A DNA stretch of 64,000 nt from Dehalococcoides sp. JdFR-54 (GCA_002011475.1 MTNP01000005.1:15336-79335), one strand, 5' to 3'. Shown: positions 3,628 to 47,962, counted from the stretch's first letter. Made by a program: numbers and translations. The notes: generated by a model from the letters alone, not told the origin.

Positions 3628-4881
3628 CTATAGGAACCCCCTGGGGTCAGCCACCTCACCGGCCAAGGCCGTGGCCGCGGCGGTGGCGGGGCTGGCCAGA
3701 TAGATAAAGGCCTCAGGGTTGCCCATCCGCCCCCTGAAGTTGCGATTGCCGGTGGAGACACAGGTCTCGCCATCGCCCAAAACCCCCTGATGGACGCCGA
3801 GGCAGGCGGCACAGCCAGGGGGCACCACCCCGGCCCCTGCCTCCACGAGGGTCTCCAGGTAGCCGGCATTCATGGCCTGGATTAGAATCGAGGTCGAGGC
3901 GGGGCCCACGATGAGTCGGGTATCGGGGTGGCGCCGTCTGCCCCTGAGAATGGAGGCGGCCACCGCCAAGTCCTCCAGGCGGCCACCGGTGCAGGTGCCG
4001 ATGAATACCTGGTGCACCTTAGTCCCCCTGAGCTCCTGGACAGGGGCAGTGTTATCCACGGCATGGGGTTTGGCTATCATGGGCTCCAGCCCGGCGACAT
4101 CCACCTCAATAGTGCGCTCGTAGCTGGCATCGGGGTCGGCGGCCAGGGGCCGATAGCCCTGCCCCCGACCATGTTCCTCCAGGTATCCCTTGGTGACCTC
4201 ATCACTGGGGAAGAGGCCCACCTTTGCCCCCGCCTCCACCACCATATTGGCCACGGTGAGGCGGTCGGAGATGCTCATCTTGGAGAGGGTCTCTCCGGTG
4301 AATTCCAGGGCCCGGTAAGTGGCGCCATCGGCGCCGATGCTGCCGATGAGATGGAGGATGAGGTCCTTGGCATAGACCCCCCTGGGGAAATCCCCACGGA
4401 GGCACACCCTAAAGCTTTCGGGCACCCGGAACCAGGTCTTGCCCAGAGCCATAGCCACAGCCACATCTGTGGAGCCCATGCCGGTGGCGAAGGCCCCCAG
4501 GCCCCCGGCGGTGACGCTGTGGGAGTCGGCACCCACCACCACCTCGCCGGGGCTGGCAAACCTCTCCGCCACCAATTGATGACAGATGCCCTCGCCCACC
4601 TCGAAGAGCTGAGCGCCCACCTGGTGGGCGAACTGGCGCAGGAGGCGGTGGTCGTTGGCCAGTTCCCGGTTGGGGCTGGGGGCAGCATGGTCCAGAAAGA
4701 CCACAGTCCGCCCCGGATTGGCTACCCGCTGAAAGCCGCTGGCCCGAAACTGCCTTACCGTCAAAGGACCGGTGGTATCCTGGATGAAGGCCAGGTCTAC
4801 CCTGGCGATAACTATATCTCCGGCCTGGGCGTCTTCCCCCGAGTTCCAGCTCAGGATCTTCTCGGCCAGTGTCTTGCCCAA
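3628..4881 (-). CDS. leuC: 3-isopropylmalate dehydratase large subunit (archaeal-type, 417 aa)
   Basis: Aconitase-family large subunit: MGKTLAEKIL..., GSTDVAVAMALG, IGTCTGGRLEDL, CxxC Fe-S ligands. It is immediately adjacent to leuD. Confidence 0.85.
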   Translation of the reverse strand: MGKTLAEKILSWNSGEDAQAGDIVIARVDLAFIQDTTGPLTVRQFRASGFQRVANPGRTVVFLDHAAPSPNRELANDHRLLRQFAHQVGAQLFEVGEGICHQLVAERFASPGEVVVGADSHSVTAGGLGAFATGMGSTDVAVAMALGKTWFRVPESFRVCLRGDFPRGVYAKDLILHLIGSIGADGATYRALEFTGETLSKMSISDRLTVANMVVEAGAKVGLFPSDEVTKGYLEEHGRGQGYRPLAADPDASYERTIEVDVAGLEPMIAKPHAVDNTAPVQELRGTKVHQVFIGTCTGGRLEDLAVAASILRGRRRHPDTRLIVGPASTSILIQAMNAGYLETLVEAGAGVVPPGCAACLGVHQGVLGDGETCVSTGNRNFRGRMGNPEAFIYLASPATAAATALAGEVADPRGFL

Positions 4882-4900
4882 AGCTGTGCCTTTGCCTTAA

Positions 4901-6847
4901 CTAGCCGATAATGGCCAGGACATCGCCCTTGGAGGCTTTGGCCCCGGGGGCCAGGCTGATCTGCTTTACCACGCCATCGGCGGGGGCAGGCAGTGTCGAT
5001 TGCATCTTCATGGCCTCGAAGATGACTATGGTATCGCCGGCCTTTACCGGGGTCCCCTCCTGCACCTCATAGCGAATGACAATGCCGGGCATGGGCGCCA
5101 GGATCGGGATGCCGCCTTTGACAGGGGGGGCCGGGGATGGTGCCGGCGCCGCCTCTTCCCTGACCTCAGCCTTGGGCGGGGCCGGGGCTGGTGGTGGTGG
5201 GGAAGGGGCCGCCGACAGCCTTGCCGGTGTCGCCGAGACCGCTGGTGGGGCCGGGGTGCCCCCCACCGGCTCCACCTCTACCTTGAAATACTCATCGTCG
5301 ACGAAGACGTTGAAGGCGCGCAACGCCGCCCCCTTGGCGGGCACCTCCTTCTCCACCTTCTCCACCAGCTTGCCCGCCTTGGCCTTGGCCACCAGCTCAT
5401 CCTCTCGCTTCACGTCCTCCATGGTCTTGGGCCTGACCTCGGGGGGAGGCTCCTCCAAACCGTATTTCCAGCGCAGGAAGCGCATCCCGGTGGTGGGATA
5501 AAGGGCATAGGTGAGGACATCCCCGATATCCCTGGCGATACCCTTGGTGGCCTCCTTGGCCTTATCCAGCTCCGGCTCCAGCATGTCAGCAGCCCGGCAG
5601 GTGATGGGCTTCTCGCCCCGCTTGTAGCCCTTGAGCACGATCTTCTGGACCTCAGGGTCGATGGGGGCGGGGGGGCGGCCATACAGCCCGTAGACATAGT
5701 CCTTGACCTGGTCGGAGACCATCTTGTAACGGCCGAAGAGGACATTCTGCACCGCCTGGATGCCCACGATCTGGCTGGTGGGGGTGACCAGGGGTGGGTA
5801 GCCCAGCTCCCGGCGAGTCCTGGGCAGTTCCTCATAGACGTCCTGAAGGCGGTCCAGGGCATCGGCCTCCCGAAGCTGGGCCACCAGGTTGGTGGTCATG
5901 CCGCCGGGTATCTGGTGCATCAGCACCCCGGTGTCGATGACGGCCATCTTGGTGGTATCCAAGAAGTCGCGATATTTGGGGGCGATGGACTCGAAATACT
6001 GGCCCAGCTTGAAGAGGTGGGCCAGGTCCAGCCCGGTATCCCGGGGACCGCCCTGTAAGGCCACCACTATGGGTTCCACCGCCGGTTGAGAGGAGCGCAG
6101 GGCGAAGGGGGCCAGGGCGGTACAAACCATATCCACACCAGCCTCGGCTGCCCTTAAATAGGCCATGGAGGCCATGCCGCTGGTGTAATGGGTGTGGAGG
6201 TGCACCGGTATCCTCAGGGCCGCCTTCAGGGCTTTCACCAGCTCGTAGGCATCGTCGGGGGCGATGAGCCCGGCCATGTCCTTGATGCAGAAGGAATCCG
6301 CCCCCATATCCTGGATGATGAGGGCCTTCTGGACGAAGTAGTCTATGTTATAAACCGGCCCGCCCAGCTTGGGCTGGGTCAGGGAATAGCACAGGCAACC
6401 CTGGATGTGCTTGCCCACCTCCTTGATGGCCTTGAAGGGTGCCTCGAAGTTGCGCTCGTCGTTGACGGCATCGAAGACGCGGAAGACGTCGATGCCCACC
6501 TCGGCGGCGTGGTGGACAAAGGCCCTGACCACATCGTCGGGGTAGTTACGGTAGCCCACCAAGTTCTGGCCGCGGAGGAGCATCTGGAGGGGGGTCTTGG
6601 GCATTAGCCTCTTCAGGGTGCGCACCCTGTCCCAGGGGTCCTCGTTGAGGAAGCGGGTGGCCACATCGAAGGTGGCACCCCCCCAGACCTCCATGGACCA
6701 GAACCCCGCCTTGTCCATCTCCTCGGCGATGGGCTCCATGTCTATGGTGCGCAGGCGGGTGGCCAGGGTGGACTGGTGCCCGTCACGCAGGGTGGTATCG
6801 GTAATTTTCAGGGGGTTTATGGCTTTGGCTGCTTCCGTCCTCGTCAT
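4901..6847 (-). CDS. carboxyltransferase 5S subunit fused to C-terminal biotinyl domain (oxaloacetate decarboxylase alpha / pyruvate carboxylase subunit B / transcarboxylase 5S-1.3S type)
   Basis: The N-terminal part has the TIM-barrel motif ITDTTLRDGHQS and the C-terminal part has the biotinylation motif EAMKM after a Pro/Ala-rich linker. The likely start is MTRTEAAK (ATG 6847..6845) with RBS GGAAAGGAA 8 nt upstream. No biotin carboxylase gene is in the window. Confidence 0.85.
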   Translation of the reverse strand: MTRTEAAKAINPLKITDTTLRDGHQSTLATRLRTIDMEPIAEEMDKAGFWSMEVWGGATFDVATRFLNEDPWDRVRTLKRLMPKTPLQMLLRGQNLVGYRNYPDDVVRAFVHHAAEVGIDVFRVFDAVNDERNFEAPFKAIKEVGKHIQGCLCYSLTQPKLGGPVYNIDYFVQKALIIQDMGADSFCIKDMAGLIAPDDAYELVKALKAALRIPVHLHTHYTSGMASMAYLRAAEAGVDMVCTALAPFALRSSQPAVEPIVVALQGGPRDTGLDLAHLFKLGQYFESIAPKYRDFLDTTKMAVIDTGVLMHQIPGGMTTNLVAQLREADALDRLQDVYEELPRTRRELGYPPLVTPTSQIVGIQAVQNVLFGRYKMVSDQVKDYVYGLYGRPPAPIDPEVQKIVLKGYKRGEKPITCRAADMLEPELDKAKEATKGIARDIGDVLTYALYPTTGMRFLRWKYGLEEPPPEVRPKTMEDVKREDELVAKAKAGKLVEKVEKEVPAKGAALRAFNVFVDDEYFKVEVEPVGGTPAPPAVSATPARLSAAPSPPPPAPAPPKAEVREEAAPAPSPAPPVKGGIPILAPMPGIVIRYEVQEGTPVKAGDTIVIFEAMKMQSTLPAPADGVVKQISLAPGAKASKGDVLAIIG

Positions 6848-6878
6848 ATCTCGTTCCTTTCCGCAGGCCGGGACCAAG

Positions 6879-7076
6879 TCAGAGGCGCAGGCTTTGTCCC
6901 CTCTTGCGGGCTGGCCAGAAGAGGGGCCTCAATTGCCGGTGGCGGCCACCGATCCGCCACGGGCTGAAGGCCAGGACCGGAGGGGGGACCGCCGGCCTGA
7001 GGGCTCTCGCCTCCATCTCCATATAGGCAGAGACCGCGCTCACGATGGCAGCGCTGAGCTTGGCCCTATCCCTCAT
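6879..7076 (-). CDS. possible small (65 aa) subunit ORF between the 12S and 5S genes (epsilon/delta-type small subunit?)
   Basis: ATG lies 18 nt after the 12S stop and the stop lies 31 nt before the 5S start. The N-terminal part is hydrophobic (LSAAIVSAVSAYM). The RBS is weak and no family can be assigned from sequence alone. Confidence 0.25.
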   Translation of the reverse strand: MRDRAKLSAAIVSAVSAYMEMEARALRPAVPPPVLAFSPWRIGGRHRQLRPLFWPARKRGQSLRL

Positions 7077-7094
7077 ATAACAGTCACGCCTTTT

Positions 7095-8645
<1,551 letters not shown>

Positions 8646-8708
8646 AGCGCCCGGGCTCCAGTTGTGAATGAAAGCACACATAATACTAGCATAAATTGGG
8701 GCCGCTTT

Positions 8709-9620
8709 TCAAGGGCGGGGCTGCTCGCCACTGGCAGCCAGTGTCTCCTTTTGGGCGATGGCCTCGGCCAGTTCCAGCAGCCTTTTGGCCCGCTCCGCCA
8801 CCGGGACATCCACCAGCTTCCCATCCACCGAGGTGGCTGCCGAGCCCCGGGCCTCCGCCTCCTGGAAAGCGGCCAGCACCCTGCGGGCGTGCTCCACCTC
8901 CTCGGGGGAGGGGGTGAAGAGGCGATTCACTGGCTCCACCTGGCTGGGGTGGATGAGGCAGCGGCCCTTAAAACCCATCTGCCGCGACCACTTGGTATCC
9001 TCGATGAGGCCGGCCTCGTCCCGGAAGTTCACATATGGGGTATCCAGCGGGATGACCCCGGCGGCCATGCCGGCAATGGCGGTAATGGTGCGAGGGTAAA
9101 TCAGCTCGATGCCCTGCTCGGAGCGCACTATGCCCATATCTAAGGTATAGTCGTCGGCGCCGAAGGCTATGGCGGAGATGCGAGGGGAGGCGGAGGCGAT
9201 TTCGAACACATTTACTATGCTCTTGGCGGTCTCGATCCAGGCGGCGATCTTTATCTTGCCCACCTCCACCCCCCGCTCCCTCTCCAGGGCCTCTATCATC
9301 CCCTCCGCCCGGTGTATGTCCTGGGCCGAGCTGGGCTTGGGCAAGGTGATGCCGTCCAGTCGAGGGCCCACCACCGCCTTCAAGTCGGCCTCGGCCAGGC
9401 CGGAGACCAGCGAGTTGATGCGCACATACACCTGCTGCCCCTTAGGGGGCATGATGTCTTTTAGGAGCTCCGCTATCTGGCTGCGGGCAGTCTCCTTCTC
9501 GACAGCGGGCACCGAGTCCTCCAGGTCGAAGATGAGGGCATCGGCGGGCTGCTGAAGGGCTTTCTGGATCATATCGGGTCGGTTGCCGGGGACGAAGAGC
9601 AGGCTTCGCAGCGGTCGCAT
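8709..9620 (-). CDS. citE: HpcH/CitE-family acyl-CoA lyase (citrate lyase beta / (methyl)malyl- or citramalyl-CoA lyase-like)
   Basis: MRPLRSLLFVPGNRPDMIQKAL...DLEDSV...IHPSQVEPVN are CitE/Mcl hallmarks. Confidence 0.75.
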   Translation of the reverse strand: MRPLRSLLFVPGNRPDMIQKALQQPADALIFDLEDSVPAVEKETARSQIAELLKDIMPPKGQQVYVRINSLVSGLAEADLKAVVGPRLDGITLPKPSSAQDIHRAEGMIEALERERGVEVGKIKIAAWIETAKSIVNVFEIASASPRISAIAFGADDYTLDMGIVRSEQGIELIYPRTITAIAGMAAGVIPLDTPYVNFRDEAGLIEDTKWSRQMGFKGRCLIHPSQVEPVNRLFTPSPEEVEHARRVLAAFQEAEARGSAATSVDGKLVDVPVAERAKRLLELAEAIAQKETLAASGEQPRP

Positions 9621-9760
9621 TTCCAGATTCCCTCCGCCACAGTGGCTTCTGGCCTAGTATGCGCTATGCCATCGCCATTGTCAAGGAGCCCCCAGAACCG
9701 CCCACCCATTTGCCCCGCACGGGCCTATGTGTTAAACTAAACCCCCTGGAGAGAGGGATT

Positions 9761-10582
9761 TTGAAAATCTTGGTCAGCAATGACGACGGCATCTACGCCC
9801 GGGGGATGTGGCTGCTGGCGGAGAGGCTGAAGCAAGGGGCTGAGGTGGTGGTGGTGGCCCCTGACCGGGAGCAGAGTGGCGCGGGCACCGCTGTCAGCCT
9901 TCATCATCCCCTCCGACTGCACAGGATGCGTCCCCTGGTAGCCGGCATCGAAACCTACAGCGTGGAGGGCACCCCCTCCGATAGCATCATCCTGGCCCTG
10001 GGCACCGTGCTCAAGGATGGGGTGGACCTGGTAATCTGCGGCATCAACGAGGGGGCAAATTTGGGCAATGATGTGCTCATCTCCGGCACGGTGGGGGCAG
10101 CCCTTCAGGGCTTCTTCCACGGCATACCCTCCATCGCCTTGTCGGTGGCGGCCATCAAAGAGGCACGCTTTGAGGCAGCGGCGGAGCTGGGAGTGCTTTT
10201 GGCCCATCAGGTGGCTGAGGAGGCCATTCCCCGAGACATCCTGCTCAATGTAAACCTGCCCAACCTGCCAGCCCAGGAAATCCAAGGCATCGAGCTCACC
10301 CGGTTAGCCCAGCGAAGCTACGCCGACGTGGTCAGGGAGGGACACGATGGCAAGCGCAAGTATTACTGGATTGTGCGGGGAGAGCCCCAGTGGAATATCG
10401 ACGCCGGCACCGATATTTGGGCGGTGACCCACGGCCGGATATCCATCGCCCCTCTGGGCAGCAACCTGACCCAGGTGGCCATCCCCCCCCATTTTGGGGA
10501 GCTACTGCCGCGCCTTTGGCAGGAGCTTCGCCGCTTGGGCAGCCAGGCCCCTGGGAAGGTTGACGATGCTGAGGGTTTGTGA
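9761..10582 (+). CDS. surE: 5'/3'-nucleotidase SurE
   Basis: (M/L)KILVSNDDGIYARG from a TTG start with RBS GGAGAGAGGGA just upstream. The ORF-track start at 9659 is probably an upstream extension. Confidence 0.8.
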   Translation: MKILVSNDDGIYARGMWLLAERLKQGAEVVVVAPDREQSGAGTAVSLHHPLRLHRMRPLVAGIETYSVEGTPSDSIILALGTVLKDGVDLVICGINEGANLGNDVLISGTVGAALQGFFHGIPSIALSVAAIKEARFEAAAELGVLLAHQVAEEAIPRDILLNVNLPNLPAQEIQGIELTRLAQRSYADVVREGHDGKRKYYWIVRGEPQWNIDAGTDIWAVTHGRISIAPLGSNLTQVAIPPHFGELLPRLWQELRRLGSQAPGKVDDAEGL

Positions 10583-10658
10583 TAAAATTCGCTGCGGATT
10601 TGCGGCTAAAAGCATAGTCAAATAAACCCCAGGCCCAAACAAAGGAAAGGAGCGGGCA

Positions 10659-11165
10659 ATGGCCAAGGTGGCTTGCCGAGTGTTCAGAGACCCCCGGAAT
10701 GCCCAGGCCGCAATCGAGGAACTGGTGGCCAAGGGCTTTAGGGGGGAGGAGATCGGGGTGGTGGCCCGAGATAAGGAACTGGTGGCCAGGCTGGTGGGCC
10801 AGCAGGCAGTGGTGGAGCTCCAGCACCCCGAAATGGATAAGGTGACGGCAGCTGGGCCCCTGGCCGAGGTCATGGCCCGGGCGGGTCAGGATGGCGAGCT
10901 AACGGCGGCCATGGCCCAGGCCCTGGACATCTCTGAGGAGCGATATAACTACTACGAGTTCGGCATTTCGGTGGGCCAGGTCCTGGTCAGCGTCCATACC
11001 AGCGACCAGCAATTGGCCCAGGCCCGCCAGATCCTTAGGTCAGCCGAGGCACCCCCGCCCACGCTACCGGTCAGGGAGAGCAGCCCCGGCTTTGTGCAGG
11101 CGGAGCGGATGTCCGCCACCAACCCCATAGATGCCCCCATGTCTGGGGACTTCCGCAGATACTAA
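10659..11165 (+). CDS. YflT/general-stress-17M-like domain protein (hypothetical)
   Basis: N-terminal VFRDPRNAQAAIEELVAKGFRGEEIGVV resembles the YflT heat-induced stress protein fold. There is a good RBS AAAGGAAAGGAG. Confidence 0.45.
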   Translation: MAKVACRVFRDPRNAQAAIEELVAKGFRGEEIGVVARDKELVARLVGQQAVVELQHPEMDKVTAAGPLAEVMARAGQDGELTAAMAQALDISEERYNYYEFGISVGQVLVSVHTSDQQLAQARQILRSAEAPPPTLPVRESSPGFVQAERMSATNPIDAPMSGDFRRY

Positions 11166-11194
11166 GCGGCCATCAACCGAGGAGGATAGGCACA

Positions 11195-13417
11195 ATGTCC
11201 AGATATATAGCGACTTCGGCCATCAGGGGCGCCCGAGATATCGTGGCCGAGGCCGAAAGGCTACTCAAGGAGTCCCTGGAGACCATGGGGCCCGATACCC
11301 CGGTGGCCTTCCCCAATACCGCCTACTATCTGCCCGTTATTTACGGCATCACCGGCCATAAGGTGGAGAGGCTGGCCGACCTCCAGTGGCCCCTGGACCA
11401 CGCCAAGTCCCTGCTGCCCCCGGTGCCCCGACAGAGCCTATGGCTTCCCTATCTGGGGGAGACCCTGGATGCCGGCATGGCTACCCTGTTCGCCGAGGAG
11501 ATCATCGAGGGCATCCGCTTCGCCAAGGGCGAGCAGCCCGAGGTGCGCAACGGCTATACCTTCAACGGCCCCATCGACGATGTCCAGATGCGCGCCTGGG
11601 GTATCCAGATGGTGGACGGGCGTATGCCCGGATTTGCCGCCATCATCGGGGCGGCCAAGAGCAATGAGGTGGCGGTGAAGATCGTGCGCGAGCTCCAGTC
11701 CAAGGGACAGCTCGTCTTCCTCTCCGGCAATGTCAATGGCCGCTCCATTGTGGACCAGCTCCTGGAGGAGGGGGTGGAGCTGGGCTATGACACCTTTACC
11801 GTGCCCTTCGGCTCCGATACCATCTCGGCCATTTACGCCCTGGGCTACGCCACCCGCGCCGGCATCAGCTTCGGCGGCTTCAAGCCGGGCGATGCCCGGG
11901 CCAATCTCCTATATAACAAGTTCCGCTGCTTTGCCTTCGCCCTGGCCCTGGGGCAGGTGGATGACCTCAAATATGCCACCGCGGCTGGGGCTATTAACTA
12001 TGGCTTCCCGGTGGTGGCCGATACGGTCATCCCCAACATCCTGCCCGTGGGCATCACCCAGTATGAGCACGTGGTGAGCATGCCCTTCGACGACATACCG
12101 GGCAGGGACGACCTGGAGCGGGCAGAGAGGCTGGTGCAGCGCTGCATCGAGATCCGGGGCATCAAGGTCAAGATCGCCAAGGTTCCCATCCCCGTGGCCT
12201 ATGGCCCGGCCTTCGAGGGCGAGGTGGTGCGCCGCGAGAACCTGCGCCTCGAGTTCGGCGGCAAGGGCGGGCTGTGCTTCGAGTGGCTGACCATGCGGGA
12301 TATGGACGAGGTGGAAGACGGCAAGATCACGGTGGTCGGCCCCGAGCTGGATGCCTTCGAGGTGGGGGCAAAGGTGCCCCTGGGCATCATGGTGGATGTG
12401 GCCGGCCGCAAGATGCAAAAGGACTTCGAGCCGGTGCTGGAGCGGCAGATCCACCACTTCGTCAACGGGGCTGAGGGGGTGCAGCATCAGGGTCAGCGGG
12501 ACATCACCTGGATCCGCATCAGCAAAGCGGCCGCCGATAAGGGGTTCAAGATAAAGCACCTGGGGGACATCCTCCATGCCAACTTCCACAACCTGTTCGG
12601 CGCCATCGTGGATAAGATCCAGATAACCCTTTATACCGAACAGGATAAGGTGGCCGAGCTCATGGAGCAGGCCCGAGAGGTCTACCGGGAACGCAATAAG
12701 CGCATCGCCGACCTCACCGATGAGTCGGTGGACACCTACTATAGCTGCACCCTGTGCCAGTCCTTCGCCCCCACCCATGTCTGCATCATCAACCCGGAGC
12801 GGGTGGGGCTATGCGGGGCCTATAACTGGCTGGACTGCCGGGCCGCCTTCGAGATCAACCCCACCGGCCCCAACCAGCCTGTGCCCAAGGGCGAGGTGCT
12901 CGACCCGGTGAAGGGCGAATGGGAGGGGGTCAACAAGTTCGTCTACGACCATTCCCAGATGAAGGTGAACCGGTTCACCGTTTACTCCATAATGGATGCC
13001 CCTATGACCACCTGCGGCTGCTGCGAGTGCGTTATGGTGCTCCTCCCCGAGGCCAATGGCTTCATGATCGTCTCCCGCGACGACTATGGCATGACCCCCT
13101 GCGGCATGACCTTCACCACCTTGATGAGCACCGTGGGCGGCGGCCAGCAAACCCCGGGGATGATGGGCCACGGCAAATACTACATCCTGAGCAAGAAGTT
13201 CATCCCCGTGGAGGGCGGCCTCAAGCGCGTAGTGTGGATGTCCAAGAACCTCAAGGAGGAGATGGCCGAGGAGCTCCAGGCGGCCTGCGAGCGGGAGGGC
13301 GTGCCCGACCTGATGGATAAGATAGCTGACGGCACCATTTGCACCGATATCGATGGCCTCCTCCCCTTCTTAGAGGAGAAGGGACATCCCGCCCTCACCA
13401 TGGAGTCGCTAATATAA
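11195..13417 (+). CDS. acsB: acetyl-CoA synthase catalytic subunit (A-cluster protein)
   Basis: 740 aa. [4Fe-4S] ligands are in CTLCQSFAPTHVCIINPERVGLCGAYNWLDC, and the Cys-Gly-Cys Ni-bridging motif is in TTCGCCEC. Confidence 0.9.
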   Translation: MSRYIATSAIRGARDIVAEAERLLKESLETMGPDTPVAFPNTAYYLPVIYGITGHKVERLADLQWPLDHAKSLLPPVPRQSLWLPYLGETLDAGMATLFAEEIIEGIRFAKGEQPEVRNGYTFNGPIDDVQMRAWGIQMVDGRMPGFAAIIGAAKSNEVAVKIVRELQSKGQLVFLSGNVNGRSIVDQLLEEGVELGYDTFTVPFGSDTISAIYALGYATRAGISFGGFKPGDARANLLYNKFRCFAFALALGQVDDLKYATAAGAINYGFPVVADTVIPNILPVGITQYEHVVSMPFDDIPGRDDLERAERLVQRCIEIRGIKVKIAKVPIPVAYGPAFEGEVVRRENLRLEFGGKGGLCFEWLTMRDMDEVEDGKITVVGPELDAFEVGAKVPLGIMVDVAGRKMQKDFEPVLERQIHHFVNGAEGVQHQGQRDITWIRISKAAADKGFKIKHLGDILHANFHNLFGAIVDKIQITLYTEQDKVAELMEQAREVYRERNKRIADLTDESVDTYYSCTLCQSFAPTHVCIINPERVGLCGAYNWLDCRAAFEINPTGPNQPVPKGEVLDPVKGEWEGVNKFVYDHSQMKVNRFTVYSIMDAPMTTCGCCECVMVLLPEANGFMIVSRDDYGMTPCGMTFTTLMSTVGGGQQTPGMMGHGKYYILSKKFIPVEGGLKRVVWMSKNLKEEMAEELQAACEREGVPDLMDKIADGTICTDIDGLLPFLEEKGHPALTMESLI

Positions 13418-13437
13418 GGACACGCCAAATTTAAAAA

Positions 13438-13467
13438 ACAGGGGTCGAAGGGCGACCCTTGTTTTTT
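13438..13467 (+). terminator. intrinsic terminator/attenuator hairpin between acsB and acsD
   Basis: AAAAAACAGGGGTCG-AAGGG-CGACCCTTGTTTTTTGG: a 10-bp stem (one G.U), 5-nt loop, and A-tract/T-tract flanks. It could work on either strand, since acsB is plus-strand and no convergent gene exists. Confidence 0.6.
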
Positions 13468-13506
13468 GGGTTGAAGGTCTTAGTTTTTCGGGAAAGGAGA
13501 CCAAGG

Positions 13507-14448
13507 ATGGCTGTGGAAGTGCCCCTGGAGAAGTGGACCGGCAAGATACGGGAGGTGGAGCTGGGGGGCAATGGCCGGAAGAGCCTGGTGGTTGGCGGCG
13601 CAGCCACCCTTCCCTTCCTCCATTTCGAGGCTGCCATCCCCCACCGGCCGGCAGTGGCCATGGAGGTCCAGGATATATACCCTGGGGGCTGGTCGGCCCA
13701 TCTGGAGGCGGCCTGGGGGGATGCCTTGAAGGACGCCGGGGCCTGGGCCAGAAAGGCGACTGAGTTCGGCGCCGACCTCATTTGCCTGCGCCTGGTCAGC
13801 GCCCACCCCGAGTCAGGCAATACCGGCGCCGCCCAGGCCAAGGCCACCGTGGACAAGGTCCTCTCCGCCACTGACCTGCCTCTGATCGTGCTCGGGCCGG
13901 AGGTGCCCGAGAAGGATAACGAGGTTTTGGTAGCCGCCTCGGAGGTGGCCAAAGGGCAAAGGGTGGCCCTGGGCCCCTGCCTGGAAAAGAACCACCGCAC
14001 CATCGCCGCCGCCTGCCTCGCCGATGGCCATGTGGCCATCGCCAAGACCCCCATCGAGATCAACCTGGCCAAACAGCTCAACATCCTCCTCTGCGATGTG
14101 GGCATGCCCGCCAACTCCATCCTCATGGACCCCACCACCGGTGCCCTGGGCTACGGCCTGGAGTATACCTACTCGGTGATGGAGAGGCTTCGCCTGGCTG
14201 CCCTCATGGGCGACGGCATGACGGCCATGCCCATGATCTGCACCGTGGGCGAGGAATCGTGGCGGCAGAAGGAGTCCAGGGCAGCCCAGGGCGTGCCCGC
14301 CAGCTGGGGCGATATCGAAAGGCGCTCCCTGGTCTGGGAGGAGCTCACCGCCCTGAGCCTGCTGCACTCCGGCGCCGATATCGTGGTGCTGAGGCACCCT
14401 GGGGTGGTGGAGAGGGTCAAGGCCGCCATAGACCAGCTCATGGCATAG
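13507..14448 (+). CDS. acsD: corrinoid iron-sulfur protein small subunit
   Basis: Start MAVEVPLEKWTGKIREVELGG with RBS GGAAAGGAG. It has the TIM-barrel CFeSP delta family features. Confidence 0.85.
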   Translation: MAVEVPLEKWTGKIREVELGGNGRKSLVVGGAATLPFLHFEAAIPHRPAVAMEVQDIYPGGWSAHLEAAWGDALKDAGAWARKATEFGADLICLRLVSAHPESGNTGAAQAKATVDKVLSATDLPLIVLGPEVPEKDNEVLVAASEVAKGQRVALGPCLEKNHRTIAAACLADGHVAIAKTPIEINLAKQLNILLCDVGMPANSILMDPTTGALGYGLEYTYSVMERLRLAALMGDGMTAMPMICTVGEESWRQKESRAAQGVPASWGDIERRSLVWEELTALSLLHSGADIVVLRHPGVVERVKAAIDQLMA

Positions 14449-14463
14449 CGAGAGGAGGCAACC

Positions 14464-15816
14464 ATGGCATTAACCGGGATCGAAATCTATAAGCTCCTGC
14501 CCAAGACCAACTGCAAGAAGTGCGGATTCCCTACCTGCCTCGCCTTCGCCATGAAGGTGGCCCAGAAAGGGATAGAGATCACCGCCTGCCCCGACCTCAC
14601 CGAGGAGGCCAGGGGCGCCCTGGAGGCAGCGGCCCGGCCCCCCATCCGCCTGGTCACCGTGGGCAGCGATGAGCACAAGTTCGAGGTGGGCAACGAGGTA
14701 GTATTGTTCCGCCACGAGAAGACCTTCTACCATCCCCCGGCCCTTATGGTGAGGGTAAAAGACAACCTGGCCGCTGAGGAGCGGGATAAGCTGGTGAGTG
14801 AGGTGTCCCGCTACAGTGTGGAGAGGGTGGGCATAGTGATGAGCGCCGATGGCTTCGCCATCGACAACGACTCCCGGGATGCGGGCAAGTTTGCCGCCTG
14901 CGTAGAATCGGTCACCTCCCAGGTGAAGTCGCCCTTGGTGCTCATGGCCACCGACCCGGCGGCTATGGAGGCGGCCCTGGCCAAGGCGGCCGGGCGCAGG
15001 CCCCTTATCTATGCCGCCACCAGGGACAACCTGGATAGGATGGTGGAGCTGGCCAAGACATATAATTGCCCCCTGGCGGTGTCGGAGCCGGCAGGCCTGA
15101 GCGAGCTGGCCGAACTCACCGAGAGGGCAGCCCAGGCAGGCGTAGAGGATCTGGTCATCGACCCCGGGGCCACTGGCTTCAGCGCCTCGTTGCAGGTGCT
15201 GACCCAGCTCCGTCGCCTGGCCATAAAGAAGATGTTCCAGCCCCTGGGCTATCCCATAATCACCTTCCCCGGTGACGGGGCCACATCGGTGGAGGAGGAG
15301 GCCATGCTGGCTGGCCAGCATATCGCCAAATATGCCGGGATCATCGTGCTCAACCACTTTTCCCCGGCCACCCTGTACCCTTTGCTCACCCTGCGCCTCA
15401 ACATCTACACCGACCCCCAGAAGCCCATTCGAGTGCAGCCGGGCATCTATCAGATCGGCGAGCCCAAGGACTCCAGCCCCCTGTGCGTCACCACCAATTT
15501 CTCCCTGACCTACTTCTCCATTGCCGGCGAGCTGGAGTCCAGCGGTTTCCCCTCCTGGCTCTTGGTCTGCGATACCGAGGGCCTTTCCGTGCTCACCGCC
15601 TGGGCCGCTGGCAAGTTCGATGCTGACAGGATCGCCAAGTCGGTGAAGGAATACAAGGCCAACGAGAAGATCAACCATAATAGCCTCATCCTCCCCGGCA
15701 AGGTGGCGGTGCTCAGGGGCGAGCTGGAGGAGGAGCTGCCCGACTGGAAGATCAGGGTGGGGCCATTGGAGGCCATGGATGTGGGCAGCTATCTGAAGAC
15801 TCAGTGGAAGCCCTGA
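14464..15816 (+). CDS. acsC: corrinoid iron-sulfur protein large subunit
   Basis: N-terminal [4Fe-4S] motif CKKCGFPTCLAFA, and 450 aa as in Moorella AcsC. Confidence 0.9.
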   Translation: MALTGIEIYKLLPKTNCKKCGFPTCLAFAMKVAQKGIEITACPDLTEEARGALEAAARPPIRLVTVGSDEHKFEVGNEVVLFRHEKTFYHPPALMVRVKDNLAAEERDKLVSEVSRYSVERVGIVMSADGFAIDNDSRDAGKFAACVESVTSQVKSPLVLMATDPAAMEAALAKAAGRRPLIYAATRDNLDRMVELAKTYNCPLAVSEPAGLSELAELTERAAQAGVEDLVIDPGATGFSASLQVLTQLRRLAIKKMFQPLGYPIITFPGDGATSVEEEAMLAGQHIAKYAGIIVLNHFSPATLYPLLTLRLNIYTDPQKPIRVQPGIYQIGEPKDSSPLCVTTNFSLTYFSIAGELESSGFPSWLLVCDTEGLSVLTAWAAGKFDADRIAKSVKEYKANEKINHNSLILPGKVAVLRGELEEELPDWKIRVGPLEAMDVGSYLKTQWKP

Positions 15817-15817
15817 T

Positions 15818-16606
15818 TTGAGCCCGAAGACGGTTACCATAGCCATCGCTGGCAAGGGGGGCACGGGCAAGACCACCATCGCCGCCCTGCTGGCCAGCAT
15901 ATTTTCCCAGAAAGGGGTGGTGCTGGCCATCGACGGCGACCCCAGCACCAATCTGCACCTGTCCCTGGGCCTGTCCCTAGAGAATACGGTGGGGGCGGTG
16001 CGAGAGGACATGCTCCGACAGGCGAGGGGGGGAGGCCCCAGCCTGGGCATGGCCAAGCTGGACTATCTGGACCTGAAGATCCACGAGTGCCTAGTGGAAT
16101 CCACGGGCATCGATCTTCTGGCCATGGGCAGGCCGGAGGGGCCGGGGTGTTATTGCGCCGCCAACAATATGCTGCGCACCTGTATCGACCGCTTGGCCAG
16201 TAACTACGATTATGTGGTCATCGACACCGAGGCGGGTATGGAGCACATCAGCCGCCAGACCACCCGGGATGTGGACATCCTGCTCCTCATCTCCGACCCC
16301 ACCCTGAGGGGCGTCATCAGCGCCGTCCGGATGAAGGAGCTCATCGGGGAGCTCCGCACCCGGGTGGGTCGGATCGCCTTGGTGATAAACCGCCAGGATG
16401 GCGAGCTGTCGCCGGAGGTCCTGGGGGTGATCCGGGACCGGGGCCTGGAGCTGGTGGGCTCCCTTCCCAACGACCCCCACATGGCCGGGCTGGAAGCCCG
16501 GGGGAGACCCCTGACCGAGCTACCCCAGGATTCGCCCCTGCGGGTGGGCGTGCTCGCCATAGCCCGCCGGCTGGGCCTGGTCGAGGCCGAAAGCAAAGTC
16601 AGCTAG
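15818..16606 (+). CDS. cooC: CooC/AcsF-type Ni-insertion ATPase
   Basis: Deviant Walker A IAIAGKGGTGKTT plus a CxC region. The TTG start lies 1 nt after the acsC stop. Confidence 0.85.
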   Translation: MSPKTVTIAIAGKGGTGKTTIAALLASIFSQKGVVLAIDGDPSTNLHLSLGLSLENTVGAVREDMLRQARGGGPSLGMAKLDYLDLKIHECLVESTGIDLLAMGRPEGPGCYCAANNMLRTCIDRLASNYDYVVIDTEAGMEHISRQTTRDVDILLLISDPTLRGVISAVRMKELIGELRTRVGRIALVINRQDGELSPEVLGVIRDRGLELVGSLPNDPHMAGLEARGRPLTELPQDSPLRVGVLAIARRLGLVEAESKVS

Positions 16607-16618
16607 AGGAGAAAGGCT

Positions 16619-17539
16619 ATGTTCCTTATTGGAGAGTCCATCCATGTCATCTCGCCCAAGGTCAGGGCAGCCATCGAGAGCCGGGACAAGGCCCTTATCC
16701 AGGAACTGGCCCAGCGCCAAGTGGAGAAAGGAGCCCATTGCCTGGACCTGAACATCGGCCCCCAGAAGAAGGCCGGCACCGAGGTCATGCCCTGGATGGT
16801 TGAGACCGTCCAGGAGGTGGTCGATGTCCCCCTCTCCCTGGATACCACCAATGTCGCCGCCATGGAGGCTGGCCTTCAGGTGTGCAAGAAACAGGCCATC
16901 ATCAATAGCACCGATGCCACCCCGGAGCGCCTCCACGCCCTGATGCCCCTGGCCGCCAAGTACAATGCCCGGATCATCGCCCTGTCCTTGGCAGCCACCG
17001 GCCTGCCCACTAGCGCCGATGCCCGCATCACGCTGGCCTCAGAGAACCTGCTGCCGGCAGCTATGGAATACGGGGTGCCCTATGAGAATATTTACCTCGA
17101 CCCCCTGGTGCTCACCGTCAACGGCAACCAGGACCAGGCCCTGGCCACGGTGGAGGCGGTGCGCCTCTTCAAGCAGATGACCGACCCCCCCTGCCTCACC
17201 ACCTGCGGCCTGTCCAACGTCTCCAATAGCTGTCCCAATGAACTGCGCTCCCTGCTCAACCGGGTGTTCCTGGTGATGCTCATGGGCGCCGGCCTGGACT
17301 CGGCCATCGCCGATGCCCTGGATGACGAGCTTCTGGAAACCATCCGCATTGTGGAGAGCCGAGATACCTCCACCCCCAAGGGCCAGCTCTATATAGACCT
17401 CTTCGATACCTACCAAGCGGGCGGGGAGTTCGACCCCAGCGGCGTAGATATGAGCAACCCCGAGCTCAGCGACATCGTCAAGACCATAAAGGTCTTCGAG
17501 AACAAAACCCTGTACGCCCACGGCTACCTGAGGCTATAG
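16619..17539 (+). CDS. acsE: methyltetrahydrofolate:corrinoid/iron-sulfur protein methyltransferase
   Basis: MFLIGESIHV...GAHCLDLNIGP follows the Moorella MeTr pattern MLIIGERIN...GARALDLNVGP. Confidence 0.85.
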   Translation: MFLIGESIHVISPKVRAAIESRDKALIQELAQRQVEKGAHCLDLNIGPQKKAGTEVMPWMVETVQEVVDVPLSLDTTNVAAMEAGLQVCKKQAIINSTDATPERLHALMPLAAKYNARIIALSLAATGLPTSADARITLASENLLPAAMEYGVPYENIYLDPLVLTVNGNQDQALATVEAVRLFKQMTDPPCLTTCGLSNVSNSCPNELRSLLNRVFLVMLMGAGLDSAIADALDDELLETIRIVESRDTSTPKGQLYIDLFDTYQAGGEFDPSGVDMSNPELSDIVKTIKVFENKTLYAHGYLRL

Positions 17540-23781: not shown

Positions 23782-23845
23782 CAGCTGCTGCCCTGGGGGA
23801 CCGTAGGCAGTAGGGTTTGAGATCATAGCATTGATATGAAGGGCA

Positions 23846-23878
23846 AACCATGCCTGGGGGGCCAGCCCGCGTTGCGGG
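23846..23878. terminator. perfect 15-bp stem / 3-nt loop hairpin between convergent mutS and sucD
   Basis: GGGGGGCCAGCCCGC-GTT-GCGGGCTGGCCCCCC. There is no clear U-tract on either side. Confidence 0.5.
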
Positions 23879-23911
23879 CTGGCCCCCCCAAACATCGTCT
23901 CCTTATGTCGC

Positions 23912-24796
23912 TTAGCCCCTCCCCTTCAGCACCTCCCTGAGGGTAAGGCCGATCTCGGCGGGGCTGGGGGCGATGGTTGCCCCTGCCGCCTGGAGGGCCT
24001 CGAGCTTGGCCTTGGCAGTGCCCGAGGCGCCGCTGATAATAGCGCCAGCGTGACCCATCCGGCGACCGGGCGGGGCGGTAGCTCCCACCACGAAGGCCAC
24101 CACCGGCTTGGTCATCTCGTTCTTGATAACCTCGGCGGCCTCCTGCTCCATGCTGCCCCCGATCTCCCCAATGAGCACTACTGCCTCGGTGTCAGGGTCT
24201 TTCTCGAAGAGGCGGAGCACCGGGATGAAGTCGGTGCCGGGGGTGGGGTCGCCCCCGATGCCGATGCAGGTGGATTGCCCCAGTCCCAGCTCAGTAAGCT
24301 GGGCCACTGCTTCATAGGTGAGGGTACCACTGCGGGAGACCACGCCGATGCTGCCCGGGTGGTGGATATCCCCAGGCATGATGCCTATCTTGCACCGGGC
24401 CGGTGGCGAGATGATGCCAGGGCAGTTGGGCCCGATGAGCCGGGTGCTTTTCCCCTCTAAATAGCGCAGCACTGCCACCATATCCAGGGTGGGGATGCCC
24501 TCGGTGATGCACACCGCCAAGGCCAGGCCGGCATCGGCGGCCTCCAGGATGGCATCGGCGGCGAAGGCGGGGGGCACAAAGATGAGGCTGGCGTTGGCGC
24601 CGGTCTCCTTTACCGCCTCCTCCACCCGATTGAATACGGGGATGGTGTCGTCGAACATGGTTCCGCCCTTGCCTGGGGTGACCCCGGCCACCACCTGGGT
24701 GCCGTATTGAATACAGCGTCGGGTATGGAAGCTGCCCTCGTTGCCAGTGATCCCCTGGACTACGAGCCTGGTATTCTCATCAGCGATGATGCTCAC
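23912..24796 (-). CDS. sucD: succinyl-CoA synthetase alpha subunit
   Basis: GTG start gives [18 protein letters not shown] with RBS AGAGGAG. The ORF-track N-terminal extension overlaps sucC and is rejected. Confidence 0.9.
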
Positions 24797-24810
24797 CGTT
24801 GAGCTCCTCT

Positions 24811-25968: not shown

Positions 25969-26031
25969 AAAGCCACTCCCCTCCGAGACATCAATTGACC
26001 AGGCCTCATGGTGGCGGAGGGGGTGGGATTC

Positions 26032-26122
26032 GAACCCACGGCCCCGAGAATCGAGGCAGCGGTTTTCAAGACCGCCTCCTTAAACCGCTCGGACACCCCT
26101 CCTATGCAGGATAGTATACCTG
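26032..26122 (-). tRNA. tRNA-Ser (anticodon UGA), 91 nt with long variable arm
   Basis: The minus strand reads GGAGGGGTGTCCGAGCGGTTTAAGGAGGCGGTCTTGAAAACCGC...GTGGGTTCGAATCCCACCCCCTCCGCCA. It has a 7-bp acceptor stem, anticodon loop CUUGAAA, GTTCGAATC T-loop and encoded CCA. It resembles E. coli tRNA-Ser(UGA). Confidence 0.85.
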
Positions 26123-26200: not shown

Positions 26201-27208
26201 TCAGCAGATCCTGGGCAATAACTCGCCCACCAACATATCCAGGAGGCGGCTGGCCCCCAAGAGGGTTTTCATCACCACCCGCCCTGGATGCTGGGCAGTG
26301 ACCTCCCCGATGATGGCGGCCTGGGCACCATATCTATTGCCCTTCATTGCCGCCAGCACCCTTTCCGCATCCTCGGGGGCCACTACGGCCACCAGCTTGC
26401 CCTCGTTGGCCACATAGAGGGGGTCGAATCCCAGAAGCTCGCAGGCCGCCTGCACCGCCTCCCGCACCGGCACCCTGGCCTCCTCGATGCGGATGCCCAC
26501 CCCCGACTGTTGGGCCAGCTCGTTGAGGCTGCTCACCAGCCCGCCTCGGGTGGGGTCGCGCAGGCAATGGATATTGGGGGAGGCCCCGAGCATCTCGGCC
26601 ACCAGGTGGTTAAGGGGGGCGCAGTCGCTGTCCACCGGCACCGAGAACTCTAGGCCCTGGCGCCGGCTCATAACGGCGACACCGTGGTCGCCCACCGGGC
26701 CGCTGAGGATGACCTTGTCCCCGGGGCGAGCGTTGGCGCCCGATATATCAACCCCATGGGGTACCAGTCCTATGCCCGAGGTATTAATGAATATGCCATC
26801 GGCGCCGCCCCGGTTCACCACCTTGGTATCGCCGGCCACCACCTTGACCCCGGCCTCGGCTGCCGCCTCCCGGATGGAGGCCACTATCTGTTTCAGGCCC
26901 CCCAGGGCGAAGCCCTCCTCGATGACAAAGGACAGGGTGAGGTATAAAGGCCGGGCGCCGCTCATGGCCAGGTCGTTGACGGTGCCGCACACGGCCAGCT
27001 TGCCGATATCGCCGCCGGGAAAGAAGATGGGGCTCACCACATAGCTATCAGTGGTGAAGGCGAGGCGGCCGCTGAGGTCGAAGACGGCGCAGTCGTCCAG
27101 CCTATCCAGCAGGGGATTGCTGAGGAGGGGGACCAGGGTCTGCTGCACCAGGTCGTGGCTGAGCTTGCCGCCGCTGCCGTGGGCCAGCAGTATGGTATCC
27201 TCATTCAT
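26201..27208 (-). CDS. hypE: hydrogenase maturation protein HypE (AIR synthase-like)
   Basis: MNEDTILLAHGSGGKLSHDLV, ending in the C-terminal ...PRIC cysteine. It has PurM-like domains. Confidence 0.85.
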   Translation of the reverse strand: MNEDTILLAHGSGGKLSHDLVQQTLVPLLSNPLLDRLDDCAVFDLSGRLAFTTDSYVVSPIFFPGGDIGKLAVCGTVNDLAMSGARPLYLTLSFVIEEGFALGGLKQIVASIREAAAEAGVKVVAGDTKVVNRGGADGIFINTSGIGLVPHGVDISGANARPGDKVILSGPVGDHGVAVMSRRQGLEFSVPVDSDCAPLNHLVAEMLGASPNIHCLRDPTRGGLVSSLNELAQQSGVGIRIEEARVPVREAVQAACELLGFDPLYVANEGKLVAVVAPEDAERVLAAMKGNRYGAQAAIIGEVTAQHPGRVVMKTLLGASRLLDMLVGELLPRIC

Positions 27209-28292
27209 GGTCAGCTCCATATTGGTAGTAGGCGGCACAGCTCCCCTCCGAGGAGACCATGCACGGGCCTACCGGATGCTCCGGGGTGCACACCCTGCGG
27301 AACAGCTTGCAGTCCAGGGGGGTTTTGACGGCCCGGAGGATGTCTCCGCAGAGGCAGCCAGCCGGCTCCAGGGTGGGGCCGGGGTCTATTTGGAATTGGG
27401 CCTCGGCGTCGAAGCTGCGGTACTTCTCCCTCAGCTTCAGCCCGCTCTGGGGCACGGTGCCGATGCCTCGCCAGGTGGCTTGGCTCTCCTCAAAGACAGT
27501 GGCCATGAGCCTCAGAGCCTGGGGATTCCCCTCGGGCTTGACGCCCCGTCTATAGGCTATCTCCACTTTGGGCTCCCCCCTCTCCACTTGGGCCACCAGC
27601 ATCTCCACGCTGAGCAGGATATCCAGAGGCTCAAACCCCGAGACCACGCAGCCAATGCCGTAGCCAGTGGGGATAAATCCCCAGGGGCGGGAGCCGATGA
27701 CGGCGCTGACATGGCCGGGGCAGATGAGGCCATCCAGCCTCACCTCTCCGGAGTCGAGCAGGGCCTTGATCACCGGGGGGCACAGCTTGTGCAGGGGGAG
27801 GACGAAGTAGTTGTGGATGGCCTCCGCCTCCGCCTGGAGCACCGAGGCGGCCACAGTGGGGGCGGTGGTCTCGAAGCCGATGCCCAAGAACACCACCCGC
27901 TTATCGGGGTTGTCCCGGGCCATGGCCAGGGCATCCCGGGTGGAGTAGACCACCCTTATATCGCCGCCCTCAGCCTTGGCCTGCTGAAGGCTGGAGCGGC
28001 TGCCCGGGACTTTAAGCATATCGCCGAAGGTGGCTAGGATCACGCCCGGCTCCTTGGCCAGGGCGATGGCCTTGTCCAGCTCGGCGTTGGCGGTGACGCA
28101 CACGGGGCACCCCGGCCCGGAGAGCATCTCCACGGTGGGGGGGAGGAGCTGGCGAATACCATGCTTGAAAATGGTAACAGTATGCCCCCCGCAGAACTCC
28201 ATGATCCGGGCGGGCCTGGTGGAGAGCTTATGTATCCGATCCACCAAGCGCTTGCCCAGTTCCGGGTCACGATATTCGTCTACATACCTCAT
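27201..28292 (-). CDS. hypD: hydrogenase maturation protein HypD
   Basis: Motifs CGGH, GPGCPVC and C-terminal CxxH/CPVC-type cysteines, and 363 aa. Confidence 0.9.
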   Translation of the reverse strand: MRYVDEYRDPELGKRLVDRIHKLSTRPARIMEFCGGHTVTIFKHGIRQLLPPTVEMLSGPGCPVCVTANAELDKAIALAKEPGVILATFGDMLKVPGSRSSLQQAKAEGGDIRVVYSTRDALAMARDNPDKRVVFLGIGFETTAPTVAASVLQAEAEAIHNYFVLPLHKLCPPVIKALLDSGEVRLDGLICPGHVSAVIGSRPWGFIPTGYGIGCVVSGFEPLDILLSVEMLVAQVERGEPKVEIAYRRGVKPEGNPQALRLMATVFEESQATWRGIGTVPQSGLKLREKYRSFDAEAQFQIDPGPTLEPAGCLCGDILRAVKTPLDCKLFRRVCTPEHPVGPCMVSSEGSCAAYYQYGADHE

Positions 28293-28326
28293 TTTTTGAC
28301 CTCTTTCGGCCTGGGCCCTTCGTCTT

Positions 28327-28548
28327 TCAAGCCGACTCCTCGGCCAGCTCGCGCAAGAGCTTCAGGGTCTCCTCAGCCTCCCCGGCGTCGATGACATTTA
28401 TGGAATAGCCGGTGTGGAGGAGCACGTAATCGCCCACCTTCACTTCCGGGGTGAGGGCGATGCTGATGCGGCGGCCCACCCCACCCACCTCAACCTCCGC
28501 CTCCTGTCCTGTGACGGATTTGACCAGGGCTGGTATGGCCAGACACAT
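28327..28548 (-). CDS. hypC: hydrogenase maturation protein HypC
   Basis: MCLAIPA N-terminus with the essential Cys2, and 73 aa. Confidence 0.8.
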   Translation of the reverse strand: MCLAIPALVKSVTGQEAEVEVGGVGRRISIALTPEVKVGDYVLLHTGYSINVIDAGEAEETLKLLRELAEESA

Positions 28549-28550
28549 AG

Positions 28551-47957: not shown

Positions 47958-47962
47958 CGTTA

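Follow-up and report, generated by a model that had tools for sequence, protein, structure and literature searches.

Acetyl-CoA synthase (ACS) is usually studied as one half of the complex that it forms with carbon monoxide dehydrogenase (CODH). The only physiologically studied case of an ACS without CODH is, to our knowledge, that of Dehalococcoides mccartyi, a genome-reduced specialist. The acs operon of Moorella thermoacetica and Carboxydothermus hydrogenoformans has the gene order acsA-acsB-acsC-acsD-acsE, with cooC/acsF. For D. mccartyi, two sources (PMC7005905; PMC7857596) summarise the demonstration of acetyl-CoA cleavage with CO release (Zhuang et al. 2014, PNAS), state that the species encodes neither AcsE nor MetF, and describe a proposal in which the corrinoid iron-sulfur protein (CFeSP) methylates the core methionine synthase (MesB) directly. 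Here, we describe an acs operon without acsA, located at 10659-17539 in a 64,000-nucleotide stretch of DNA deposited as Dehalococcoides sp. JdFR-54 (GCA_002011475.1, MTNP01000005.1:15336-79335; hereafter, the window, meaning the whole stretch). Judging from sequence comparisons, what appears to be new is a clade-wide ACS operon that lacks acsA and contains acsE, together with an uncharacterised, conserved intercistronic hairpin and a tail-bearing accessory protein. These parts can be read jointly as one operon for an ACS/decarbonylase module without a co-encoded CODH, in which the hairpin would be a dosage device and the tail a docking peptide; we hold this reading to be slightly more probable than improbable.

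All genes of the operon lie on the + strand, and transcription likely starts at a predicted sigma-70-like promoter (10560-10588; TTGACG-17-TAAAAT with TG, 10/12 matches in a consensus scan) ahead of a gene for a 168-aa YflT-like protein (10659-11165; locus tag G4O03_08465). The second gene, acsB (11195-13417), was identified by Pfam, NCBIfam, and PDB sequence searches and encodes the 740-aa A-cluster subunit, including the N-terminal CODH-docking domain. AcsB scores 1000 bits against the NCBIfam equivalog NF040764 (cut-off 800), finds its closest solved structure in C. hydrogenoformans ACS (E 8e-224), can be aligned from end to end with 7zkj/1ru3 (C. hydrogenoformans and Moorella ACS) in a three-domain architecture, and keeps the A-cluster ligands in the Cys motifs CxxC...C...C and CGC. 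Both CFeSP subunits are present by NCBIfam cut-offs: acsD (13507-14448) matches NF003376 at 386 bits (cut-off 280, positions 1-312/313), and acsC (14464-15816) matches NF003195 at 579 bits (cut-off 306) as well as Pfam CdhD and FeS. The true start of acsD is the ATG at 13507 behind the ribosome-binding site GGAAAGGAG (13491-13499, read directly from the sequence) and not the upstream TTG/open reading frame (ORF) start at 13459, in agreement with the NCBI gene call; the same nonamer also precedes the YflT-like gene, at 10644. Next comes a gene for a CooC/AcsF-family nickel-insertion ATPase (15818-16606; P-loop GKGGTGKTT and a CYC motif in the translation), whose best solved relative in the PDB search is CooC1 (3kje, E 5e-23) and whose client, from its context, would be the A-cluster. 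The last gene, acsE (16619-17539), encodes the methyl-tetrahydrofolate (methyl-THF):CFeSP methyltransferase; its product matches the Moorella enzyme MeTr (2e7f/1f6y) end to end (E 8e-64) and reaches 256.9 bits against the domain model NF005719, just under the cut-off of 259. A sequence-only reading of this DNA had named the genes acsB-acsD-acsC-cooC-acsE, in this order, after surE and a YflT-like gene, and the Pfam, NCBIfam, and PDB searches confirm both content and order.

The window DNA is part of a 168,301-bp contig (DUEO01000012.1) of GCA_011170395.1, a metagenome-assembled genome (MAG) of an uncultured member of the Dehalococcoidia and not of D. mccartyi; the contig stretch that we examined (positions 34,375-116,281; 82 kb) comprises the window and two 10-kb extensions. 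Identical DNA is present in the Logan assembly of SRR3723048, a crustal-fluid metagenome from borehole U1362A on the Juan de Fuca Ridge flank (PMC5385130). A literature search for the MAG by its name, GCA_011170395.1, found no paper. The GC content ranges from 0.58 to 0.65 along the window, and the lineage is thus, as the sequence-only reading had supposed, a high-GC one other than Dehalococcoides.

No sizeable ORF of the window contains a Prismane/CODH domain (Pfam scan), and tblastn with two AcsA proteins gave no match at E<=1e-4 in the window or the two extensions. Similarly, no MTHFR domain was found in the window or its flanks, tblastn with MetF and MetV returned nothing in the same 82 kb, and no Meth_synt_2 domain was seen in ORF scans of the window. 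The two absences that had been claimed from the sequence, of acsA from the cluster and of metF from the window, are therefore both upheld. They would fit a genome without any Ni-CODH or MetF in which, as in D. mccartyi, acetyl-CoA is cleaved only to provide methyl-THF for methionine synthesis and CO is waste, an explanation that we regard as rather unlikely. In its favor are the absence of acsA, cooS, and metF from these 82 kb and of acsA from about 100 related loci (see below), the D. mccartyi precedent, the statement in one source that known Dehalococcoidia genomes lack metF (PMC7005905), and the heterotrophic character of the neighboring genes (tricarboxylic acid [TCA] cycle, succinate dehydrogenase, glycine cleavage). 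However, the window cluster contains acsE, which D. mccartyi lacks (PMC7005905; PMC7857596), and the DNA inspected is a small part of an incomplete MAG.

Comparison with related loci shows that the arrangement is not a peculiarity of this contig. In a one-genome-per-species scan, the best 80 loci encode AcsB proteins 65-83% identical to that of the window, and about 50 Dehalococcoidia genomes as well as about 50 metagenome contigs show the acsA-less arrangement. Among the loci L001-L051, acsA is missing from all except L042, and nearly all of these acsA-less records carry the label Dehalococcoidia or Chloroflexota. The acsA-less loci share the order YflT-like gene, acsB, acsD, acsC, optional inserts, cooC, and acsE, followed by a convergent mutL. 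Genes inserted within relatives' operons encode RACo, an ACD-like CoA ligase, or AOR, and not CODH; ORFs of about 645 aa, considered as hidden CODH genes, proved to be RACo. The presence of RACo within the operon in many relatives suggests heavy turnover of CFeSP, a point against a genome that cleaves acetyl-CoA only for methionine. In 27 other loci, from Anaerolineae, Thermoleophilia, and a few other Chloroflexota, the gene immediately upstream of acsB encodes a 660-830-aa Prismane protein (AcsA), and there is no YflT-like gene; one of these CODH-linked loci has the order metV-metF-hdrD-like-fchA-folD-fhs-HMA-acsA-acsB. Thus, acsA adjoins acsB in the 27 CODH-linked clusters, whereas none of the approximately 100 acsA-less loci has it within +/-10 kb, and the Ni-CODH catalytic subunit (AcsA/CooS) is co-encoded with acsB neither in these loci nor in the 82 kb around the window. 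Because the gene order is shared across the clade, the window carries the normal operon of that clade and not the product of a local deletion: a large clade of uncultured Dehalococcoidia, known from metagenomes of groundwater, sediment, and subseafloor crustal fluid, has this acsA-less arrangement as its standard acs operon.

The N-terminal domain of AcsB docks CODH and carries the CO tunnel. Within the acsA-less group, its mean pairwise identity (78.5%, residues 116-331) matches that of the C-domain (78.3%), and there are no clade-specific indels; a relaxation of selection on the docking domain in acsA-less clusters was thus not seen. An N-domain as conserved as the catalytic domain fits a CODH partner encoded elsewhere, and speaks against a genome devoid of Ni-CODH. 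A second line of evidence comes from locus L005, which has the same operon and an AcsB 80% identical to that of the window. Divergent from its YflT-acsB operon (3917-8444, - strand) lie genes for the small and large subunits of a NiFe hydrogenase, hycI, metV, and metF, a string that suggests an H2-linked methylene-THF reductase. With metVF adjoining the operon, the methyl branch can be complete in this clade, contrary to the explanation without Ni-CODH and MetF; likewise, the rationale of the sequence-only reading, that acetyl-CoA is cleaved to supply methyl-THF because metF is absent, does not hold generally. These observations bear on a further alternative, namely a complete or near-complete Wood-Ljungdahl pathway with a CooS-type CODH and MetVF encoded elsewhere, in which ACS docks or uses free CO and the pathway serves acetyl-CoA synthesis or acetate oxidation. 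The conserved docking domain, the presence of acsE, the metVF genes of L005 with their adjoining NiFe hydrogenase, and the report of a stand-alone CooS in Dehalococcoidia with the Wood-Ljungdahl pathway (PMC9751293) keep it alive, and it is also favored by the hyp genes of the window (hypD, hypE, hypF, and candidate hypC ORFs) and by the homology of the tail protein to one from CODH-containing clusters. Even so, we consider it possible but short of probable: acsA sits beside acsB in the 27 CODH-linked clusters but not in the acsA-less loci, no cooS occurs in the 82 kb of this contig, and none is evidenced in any genome of the clade among the loci examined.

The second unusual feature of the operon is an RNA hairpin between acsB and acsD (13428-13472, + strand), 11-55 nt past the acsB stop, which folds into a 20-bp stem with a 5-nt loop and is flanked by A6 upstream and T6 downstream. 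The A-tract, hairpin, and T-tract that had been noticed from the sequence alone are therefore real, with a full stem covering 13428-13472. Its core stem, CAGGGGTCG/CGACCCTTG followed by T6, begins 22 nt past the acsB stop, and the conserved arms occupy 13435-13447 (AAAACAGGGGTCG) and 13453-13465 (CGACCCTTGTTTT). The structure has the form of an intrinsic terminator, a G+C-rich stem-loop that follows a gene and runs directly into a U-tract, and a terminator scan detects it on both strands. For the 89-nt spacer between acsB and acsD, the folding energy is -34.1 kcal/mol (z = -4.36; 0/200 shuffles fold as well), and for the hairpin alone it is -24.5 kcal/mol at 37 C; at 65 C, the values for the hairpin are -11.9 for the sense strand versus -6.3 for the antisense strand. 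Downstream, the minimum-energy fold contains a second, weaker stem (GGUCUU...AGGAGACC, 13476-13502), in which part of the Shine-Dalgarno sequence of acsD is paired. No Rfam family matched the hairpin, either at E<=10 for the region or at the gathering threshold for the whole window.

When the spacer was folded in every locus, a hairpin was found in almost all acsA-less loci, and most of these share the sequence (A)AACARGGGTCG - 5 to 9 nt - CGRCCCTTGTT(T). By our own tally with a tolerant pattern, 37 of the 49 unselected acsA-less loci from genomes have the motif 22-68 nt past the acsB stop, and several further ones have recognisable variants; elsewhere in 1.33 Mb, this pattern gave loose chance matches in coding DNA only. 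The inner 11 bp are paired in 100% of 36 distinct aligned copies, picked by a regular expression that tolerates R at wobble positions, and every substitution within them is wobble or compensatory (UA 24/UG 12; AU 31/GC 3/GU 2; CG 34/UA 1/UG 1). The arms are 88-91% identical, versus 33% for the loop, 46% for acsB third codon positions, and 71% for second positions. Since the arms are conserved far above the neighboring synonymous sites, selection is a better explanation than passive retention. A covariance model built from the alignment matched only at the acsB-acsD junction in 1.29 Mb, including three copies outside the training alignment, and the + strand outscored the - strand almost everywhere. 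In the JGI metagenome collection, the exact pattern occurs 77 times: 44 matches lie 24-65 nt past an acsB stop on the sense strand, and six more are directly upstream of acsD at a contig edge (junction total, 50/77). The U-tract is more variable, being T6 in the window copy and only TTTNATG in many relatives. The CODH-linked clusters have hairpins after acsB too, although these are unrelated in sequence.

What the hairpin could do is constrained by its surroundings. The distance from the stem to the acsD start is 34 nt, including the ribosome-binding site, which begins 19 nt after the stem, and most of the relatives that were spot-checked have about 30-50 nt between hairpin and acsD. An internal promoter between the hairpin and acsD was considered and rejected, as the scan found no promoter-like site in these 34 nt. 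Expression of acsD, acsC, cooC, and acsE would therefore depend on read-through, which excludes a full terminator. A DNA operator for a dimeric regulator was also rejected, given that the arms are spaced 5 to 9 nt apart and that the G.U pairs are valid in the sense RNA only; an RNA hairpin, rather than a protein-bound DNA palindrome, is suggested both by this variation in the loop and by the G.U pairs, which on the opposite strand would be C.A mismatches. Nor is it a dispersed REP-like repeat: the window has a single copy, and no others were found elsewhere in the 1.29 Mb of related DNA. Two other hairpins of the window are perfect G+C palindromes without a U-tract, one after fhs (34229-34275; 22-bp stem, about -46 kcal/mol) and one after mutS (23856-23888; 15-bp stem, about -43 kcal/mol), the latter within a 1-kb stretch (23782-24810) without any family-matched ORF. 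As these operon-end hairpins are long G+C stems that lack a U-tract, the acsB hairpin is atypical for the genome.

Taken together, the comparative data argue for a selected RNA element on the sense strand, most likely a candidate partial intrinsic terminator and/or 3'-end stabiliser. The suggestion of the sequence-only reading that it sets the stoichiometry of AcsB against CFeSP is plausible, and its conservation at this junction makes a function much likelier. In our view, it is decidedly unlikely that the hairpin plays no part in stoichiometry or regulation and has simply been kept by descent, whether as an ordinary intrinsic terminator or as a DNA palindrome such as an operator or a recombination site. 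That explanation would account for the shape, which is that of a canonical bidirectional terminator, for the occurrence of the same pattern as terminator-like hairpins in 27 unrelated contigs, and for the sequence-unrelated hairpins of CODH-linked clusters; however, a full terminator would silence the promoterless acsDC, cooC, and acsE, a dimeric DNA-binding site would not tolerate a loop of varying length (5 to 9 nt), the G.U pairs are valid on the sense RNA strand only, and descent would leave unexplained why the arms so far exceed neighboring synonymous sites in conservation.

The third feature is the protein encoded ahead of acsB, which matches the Pfam family YflT/general stress protein 17M (PF11181) over residues 8-106 at 36.5 bits (gathering threshold 26.2; E 7e-9), so that its description as YflT-like was correct. 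Membership in PF11181 says nothing about the function of the window protein. Its N-domain is variable and indel-rich in the alignment, with no conserved His or Cys, whereas the last 27 residues (SPGFxxAxRMSATNPIDAPMSGDFRRY) are nearly invariant and form the tail SPGFVQAERMSATNPIDAPMSGDFRRY (coding region 11082-11162, + strand). In the AlphaFold2 model, the N-domain has a pLDDT of about 90 and the tail of about 50; the tail is probably disordered. A Foldseek search against the PDB found no structural homologue (best E-value 0.49). The tail-bearing subfamily is small, with 83 hits among 5.8e9 clustered proteins and, in an exhaustive profile search, about 60 clusters at 50% identity; its members all come from uncultured organisms and are named 'hypothetical' or 'general stress protein'. 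The exhaustive search also returned many tail-less proteins that match only profile positions 1-128. The YflT-like gene is upstream of acsB in almost all acsA-less loci, and a six-frame motif scan showed that the ORF preceding acsB ends in the tail motif in 63 other loci. As comparison of the loci indicates, the gene is a conserved part of the operon and not a stray stress gene; the view of it as an unrelated stress protein has to be abandoned.

Short-query BLAST of the tail matched the C-termini of small ORFs that precede acsA in CODH-containing loci, and the C-terminal region of about 60 residues is homologous to the HMA/ADHH proteins encoded there (hhalign 96.8%, E 2e-10). These HMA proteins (L052-L076; e.g., L060 7577-7909) are 105-116 aa long and have an invariant ADHH where CopZ has CxxC; by sequence, they are candidate nickel chaperones of CODH/ACS. 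No curated family for the tail exists in Pfam or NCBIfam, and neither the YflT-type nor the HMA/ADHH-type protein is covered. The possibility that the tail protein is a precursor of a ribosomally synthesized and post-translationally modified peptide was set aside, with no modifying enzyme nearby and acsB as the sole constant neighbor. Because acsB is the only neighbor common to both types of tail-bearing protein, the tail can be taken to dock on the ACS machinery, and synteny makes AcsB its most parsimonious partner.

Outside the operon, surE (9659-10582; Pfam) lies upstream of the YflT-like gene. Preceding surE, a TCA-type gene block adjoins the acs operon (window 4901-9620, - strand, and contig flank) and encodes a citE/HpcH-type CoA-ester lyase, a carboxyltransferase, and a biotin carboxyl-carrier/oxaloacetate decarboxylase-type protein, then aconitase-type subunits, isocitrate/isopropylmalate dehydrogenase, malate dehydrogenase, fumarase, and succinate dehydrogenase. 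The methyl-branch genes folD (31442-32332) and fhs (32387-34150), both on the + strand and identified by Pfam, are located 13.9 kb downstream of the operon (31442-34150), so that the distal position assigned to them from the sequence alone is correct. A glycine riboswitch aptamer (52921-53015, - strand; Rfam RF00504, 68.3 bits against a threshold of 32) heads a lipB-lipA-gcvH-gcvP-gcvT/SHMT operon and points to glycine-induced one-carbon (C1) production that feeds folD and fhs. The last gene of this lipB-lipA-gcvH-gcvP1-gcvP2 operon (45291-47978, - strand) encodes an 895-aa fusion of the glycine-cleavage T protein and a serine hydroxymethyltransferase (SHMT)-like domain, in which residues 1-408 pass NCBIfam gcvT cut-offs and residues 445-874 reach 250 bits, under the 335-bit cut-off. 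The hydrogenase maturation genes hypF, hypD, and hypE are found at 26201-30854 (- strand), where two ORFs of 74-78 aa may be hypC, next to a tRNA-Ser gene (26012-26102, - strand); no hydrogenase structural gene accompanies the hyp genes in the window.

Returning to an ACS/decarbonylase module without a co-encoded CODH, its parts would be the tail-bearing small protein, AcsB, CFeSP (AcsD and AcsC), the CooC/AcsF-type Ni-insertase, and AcsE, and by homology they can interconvert acetyl-CoA with methyl-THF, CO, and CoA. Acetyl-CoA cleavage and C1 exchange would be the favored direction because the organism is heterotrophic and has a TCA cycle as well as a glycine cleavage operon under riboswitch control; the CO would then diffuse off or pass to a separately encoded CooS. 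The hairpin would give more message for the tail protein and AcsB than for CFeSP, the Ni-insertase, and AcsE, so that the first two genes would be dosed independently of the last four, and the tail would, on the evidence of synteny, serve as a docking peptide for the ACS machinery. A more specific scheme, which we think improbable, is a dedicated CODH-independent ACS: the tail protein would replace CODH on the AcsB N-domain (e.g., in gating or capping of the CO tunnel or in nickel delivery), and the hairpin, as a specific regulatory RNA that a protein recognises or that is tuned to a given level of read-through, would set the ratio of the ACS-plus-tail-protein unit to the methyl-transfer unit.

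Several points weigh against the reading as a module with a dosage hairpin and a docking tail. Nothing in the window constrains the direction of the reaction, the AcsB N-domain is as conserved as in CODH-linked clusters, and contact between the tail and AcsB is derived purely from gene order. As to the hairpin, three acsA-less loci have none and four have unrelated ones, conservation does not extend to the outer 8 bp of the window's stem, and the tolerance of the regular expression for R inflates the pairing statistics. Moreover, the remaining 27/77 JGI matches are terminator-like hairpins in unrelated organisms (39-65% GC), which marks the shape of the motif as generic.

Surveys that use acsB as a marker of Wood-Ljungdahl carbon fixation may over-call autotrophy in these Dehalococcoidia, or may miss a separately encoded CooS. 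A tail common to CODH-containing and CODH-less clusters and a conserved hairpin could also offer handles on the assembly, partnering, and dosing of ACS.

Among described systems, D. mccartyi has in common with the window AcsB, AcsC, AcsD, and a CooC-type protein without AcsA, fhs and folD elsewhere, and membership in the class Dehalococcoidia. The match to the incomplete Dehalococcoides pathway proposed in the sequence-only reading thus holds only in part, for the absence of acsA among other features: the window cluster differs in encoding AcsE and is more complete, and its close relative L005 has adjacent metVF. With AcsE in the operon, methyl transfer to THF is genetically possible. In addition, the D. 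mccartyi AcsB is not among the best 80 relatives, all of which are at least 65% identical to the window protein, and no Dehalococcoides-named homologue of the tail protein was found in protein-database searches.

With the acs operon of acetogens and carboxydotrophs, the window shares high-confidence orthologs of all non-CODH components and an identical AcsB domain architecture; it differs from them in the lack of acsA, the tail-bearing YflT-like gene before acsB, and the conserved hairpin between acsB and acsD. The monomeric ACS of C. hydrogenoformans (PDB 1RU3; Svetlitchnyi et al. 2004) reportedly works without bound CODH, on free CO. In that organism, a CODH gene lies beside acsB and the CODH/ACS complex is formed as well, in contrast to the approximately 100 acsA-less loci, which have no CODH gene nearby. 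The HMA/ADHH proteins of Anaerolineae and Thermoleophilia (L052-L076) and the window protein have the same tail (...T[ND]xxDxxM[SA]GD[FY]R[KR]Y) and the same position at the head of the operon, but the former combine it with an HMA N-domain and a His-based metal motif, and the latter with a YflT-type N-domain that has no conserved His/Cys.

Intercistronic hairpins or partial terminators set subunit ratios in pufBA-pufLMX of Rhodobacter capsulatus and at the rplL-rpoB attenuator of Escherichia coli. By analogy with these two cases, the stable stem-loop between cistrons and the promoterless genes downstream of it would be expected to result in unequal mRNA levels. We know of no conservation of the stem sequence across genomes for the puf and rplL-rpoB elements; in contrast, the stem after acsB is conserved in sequence across genomes whose synonymous sites are saturated.

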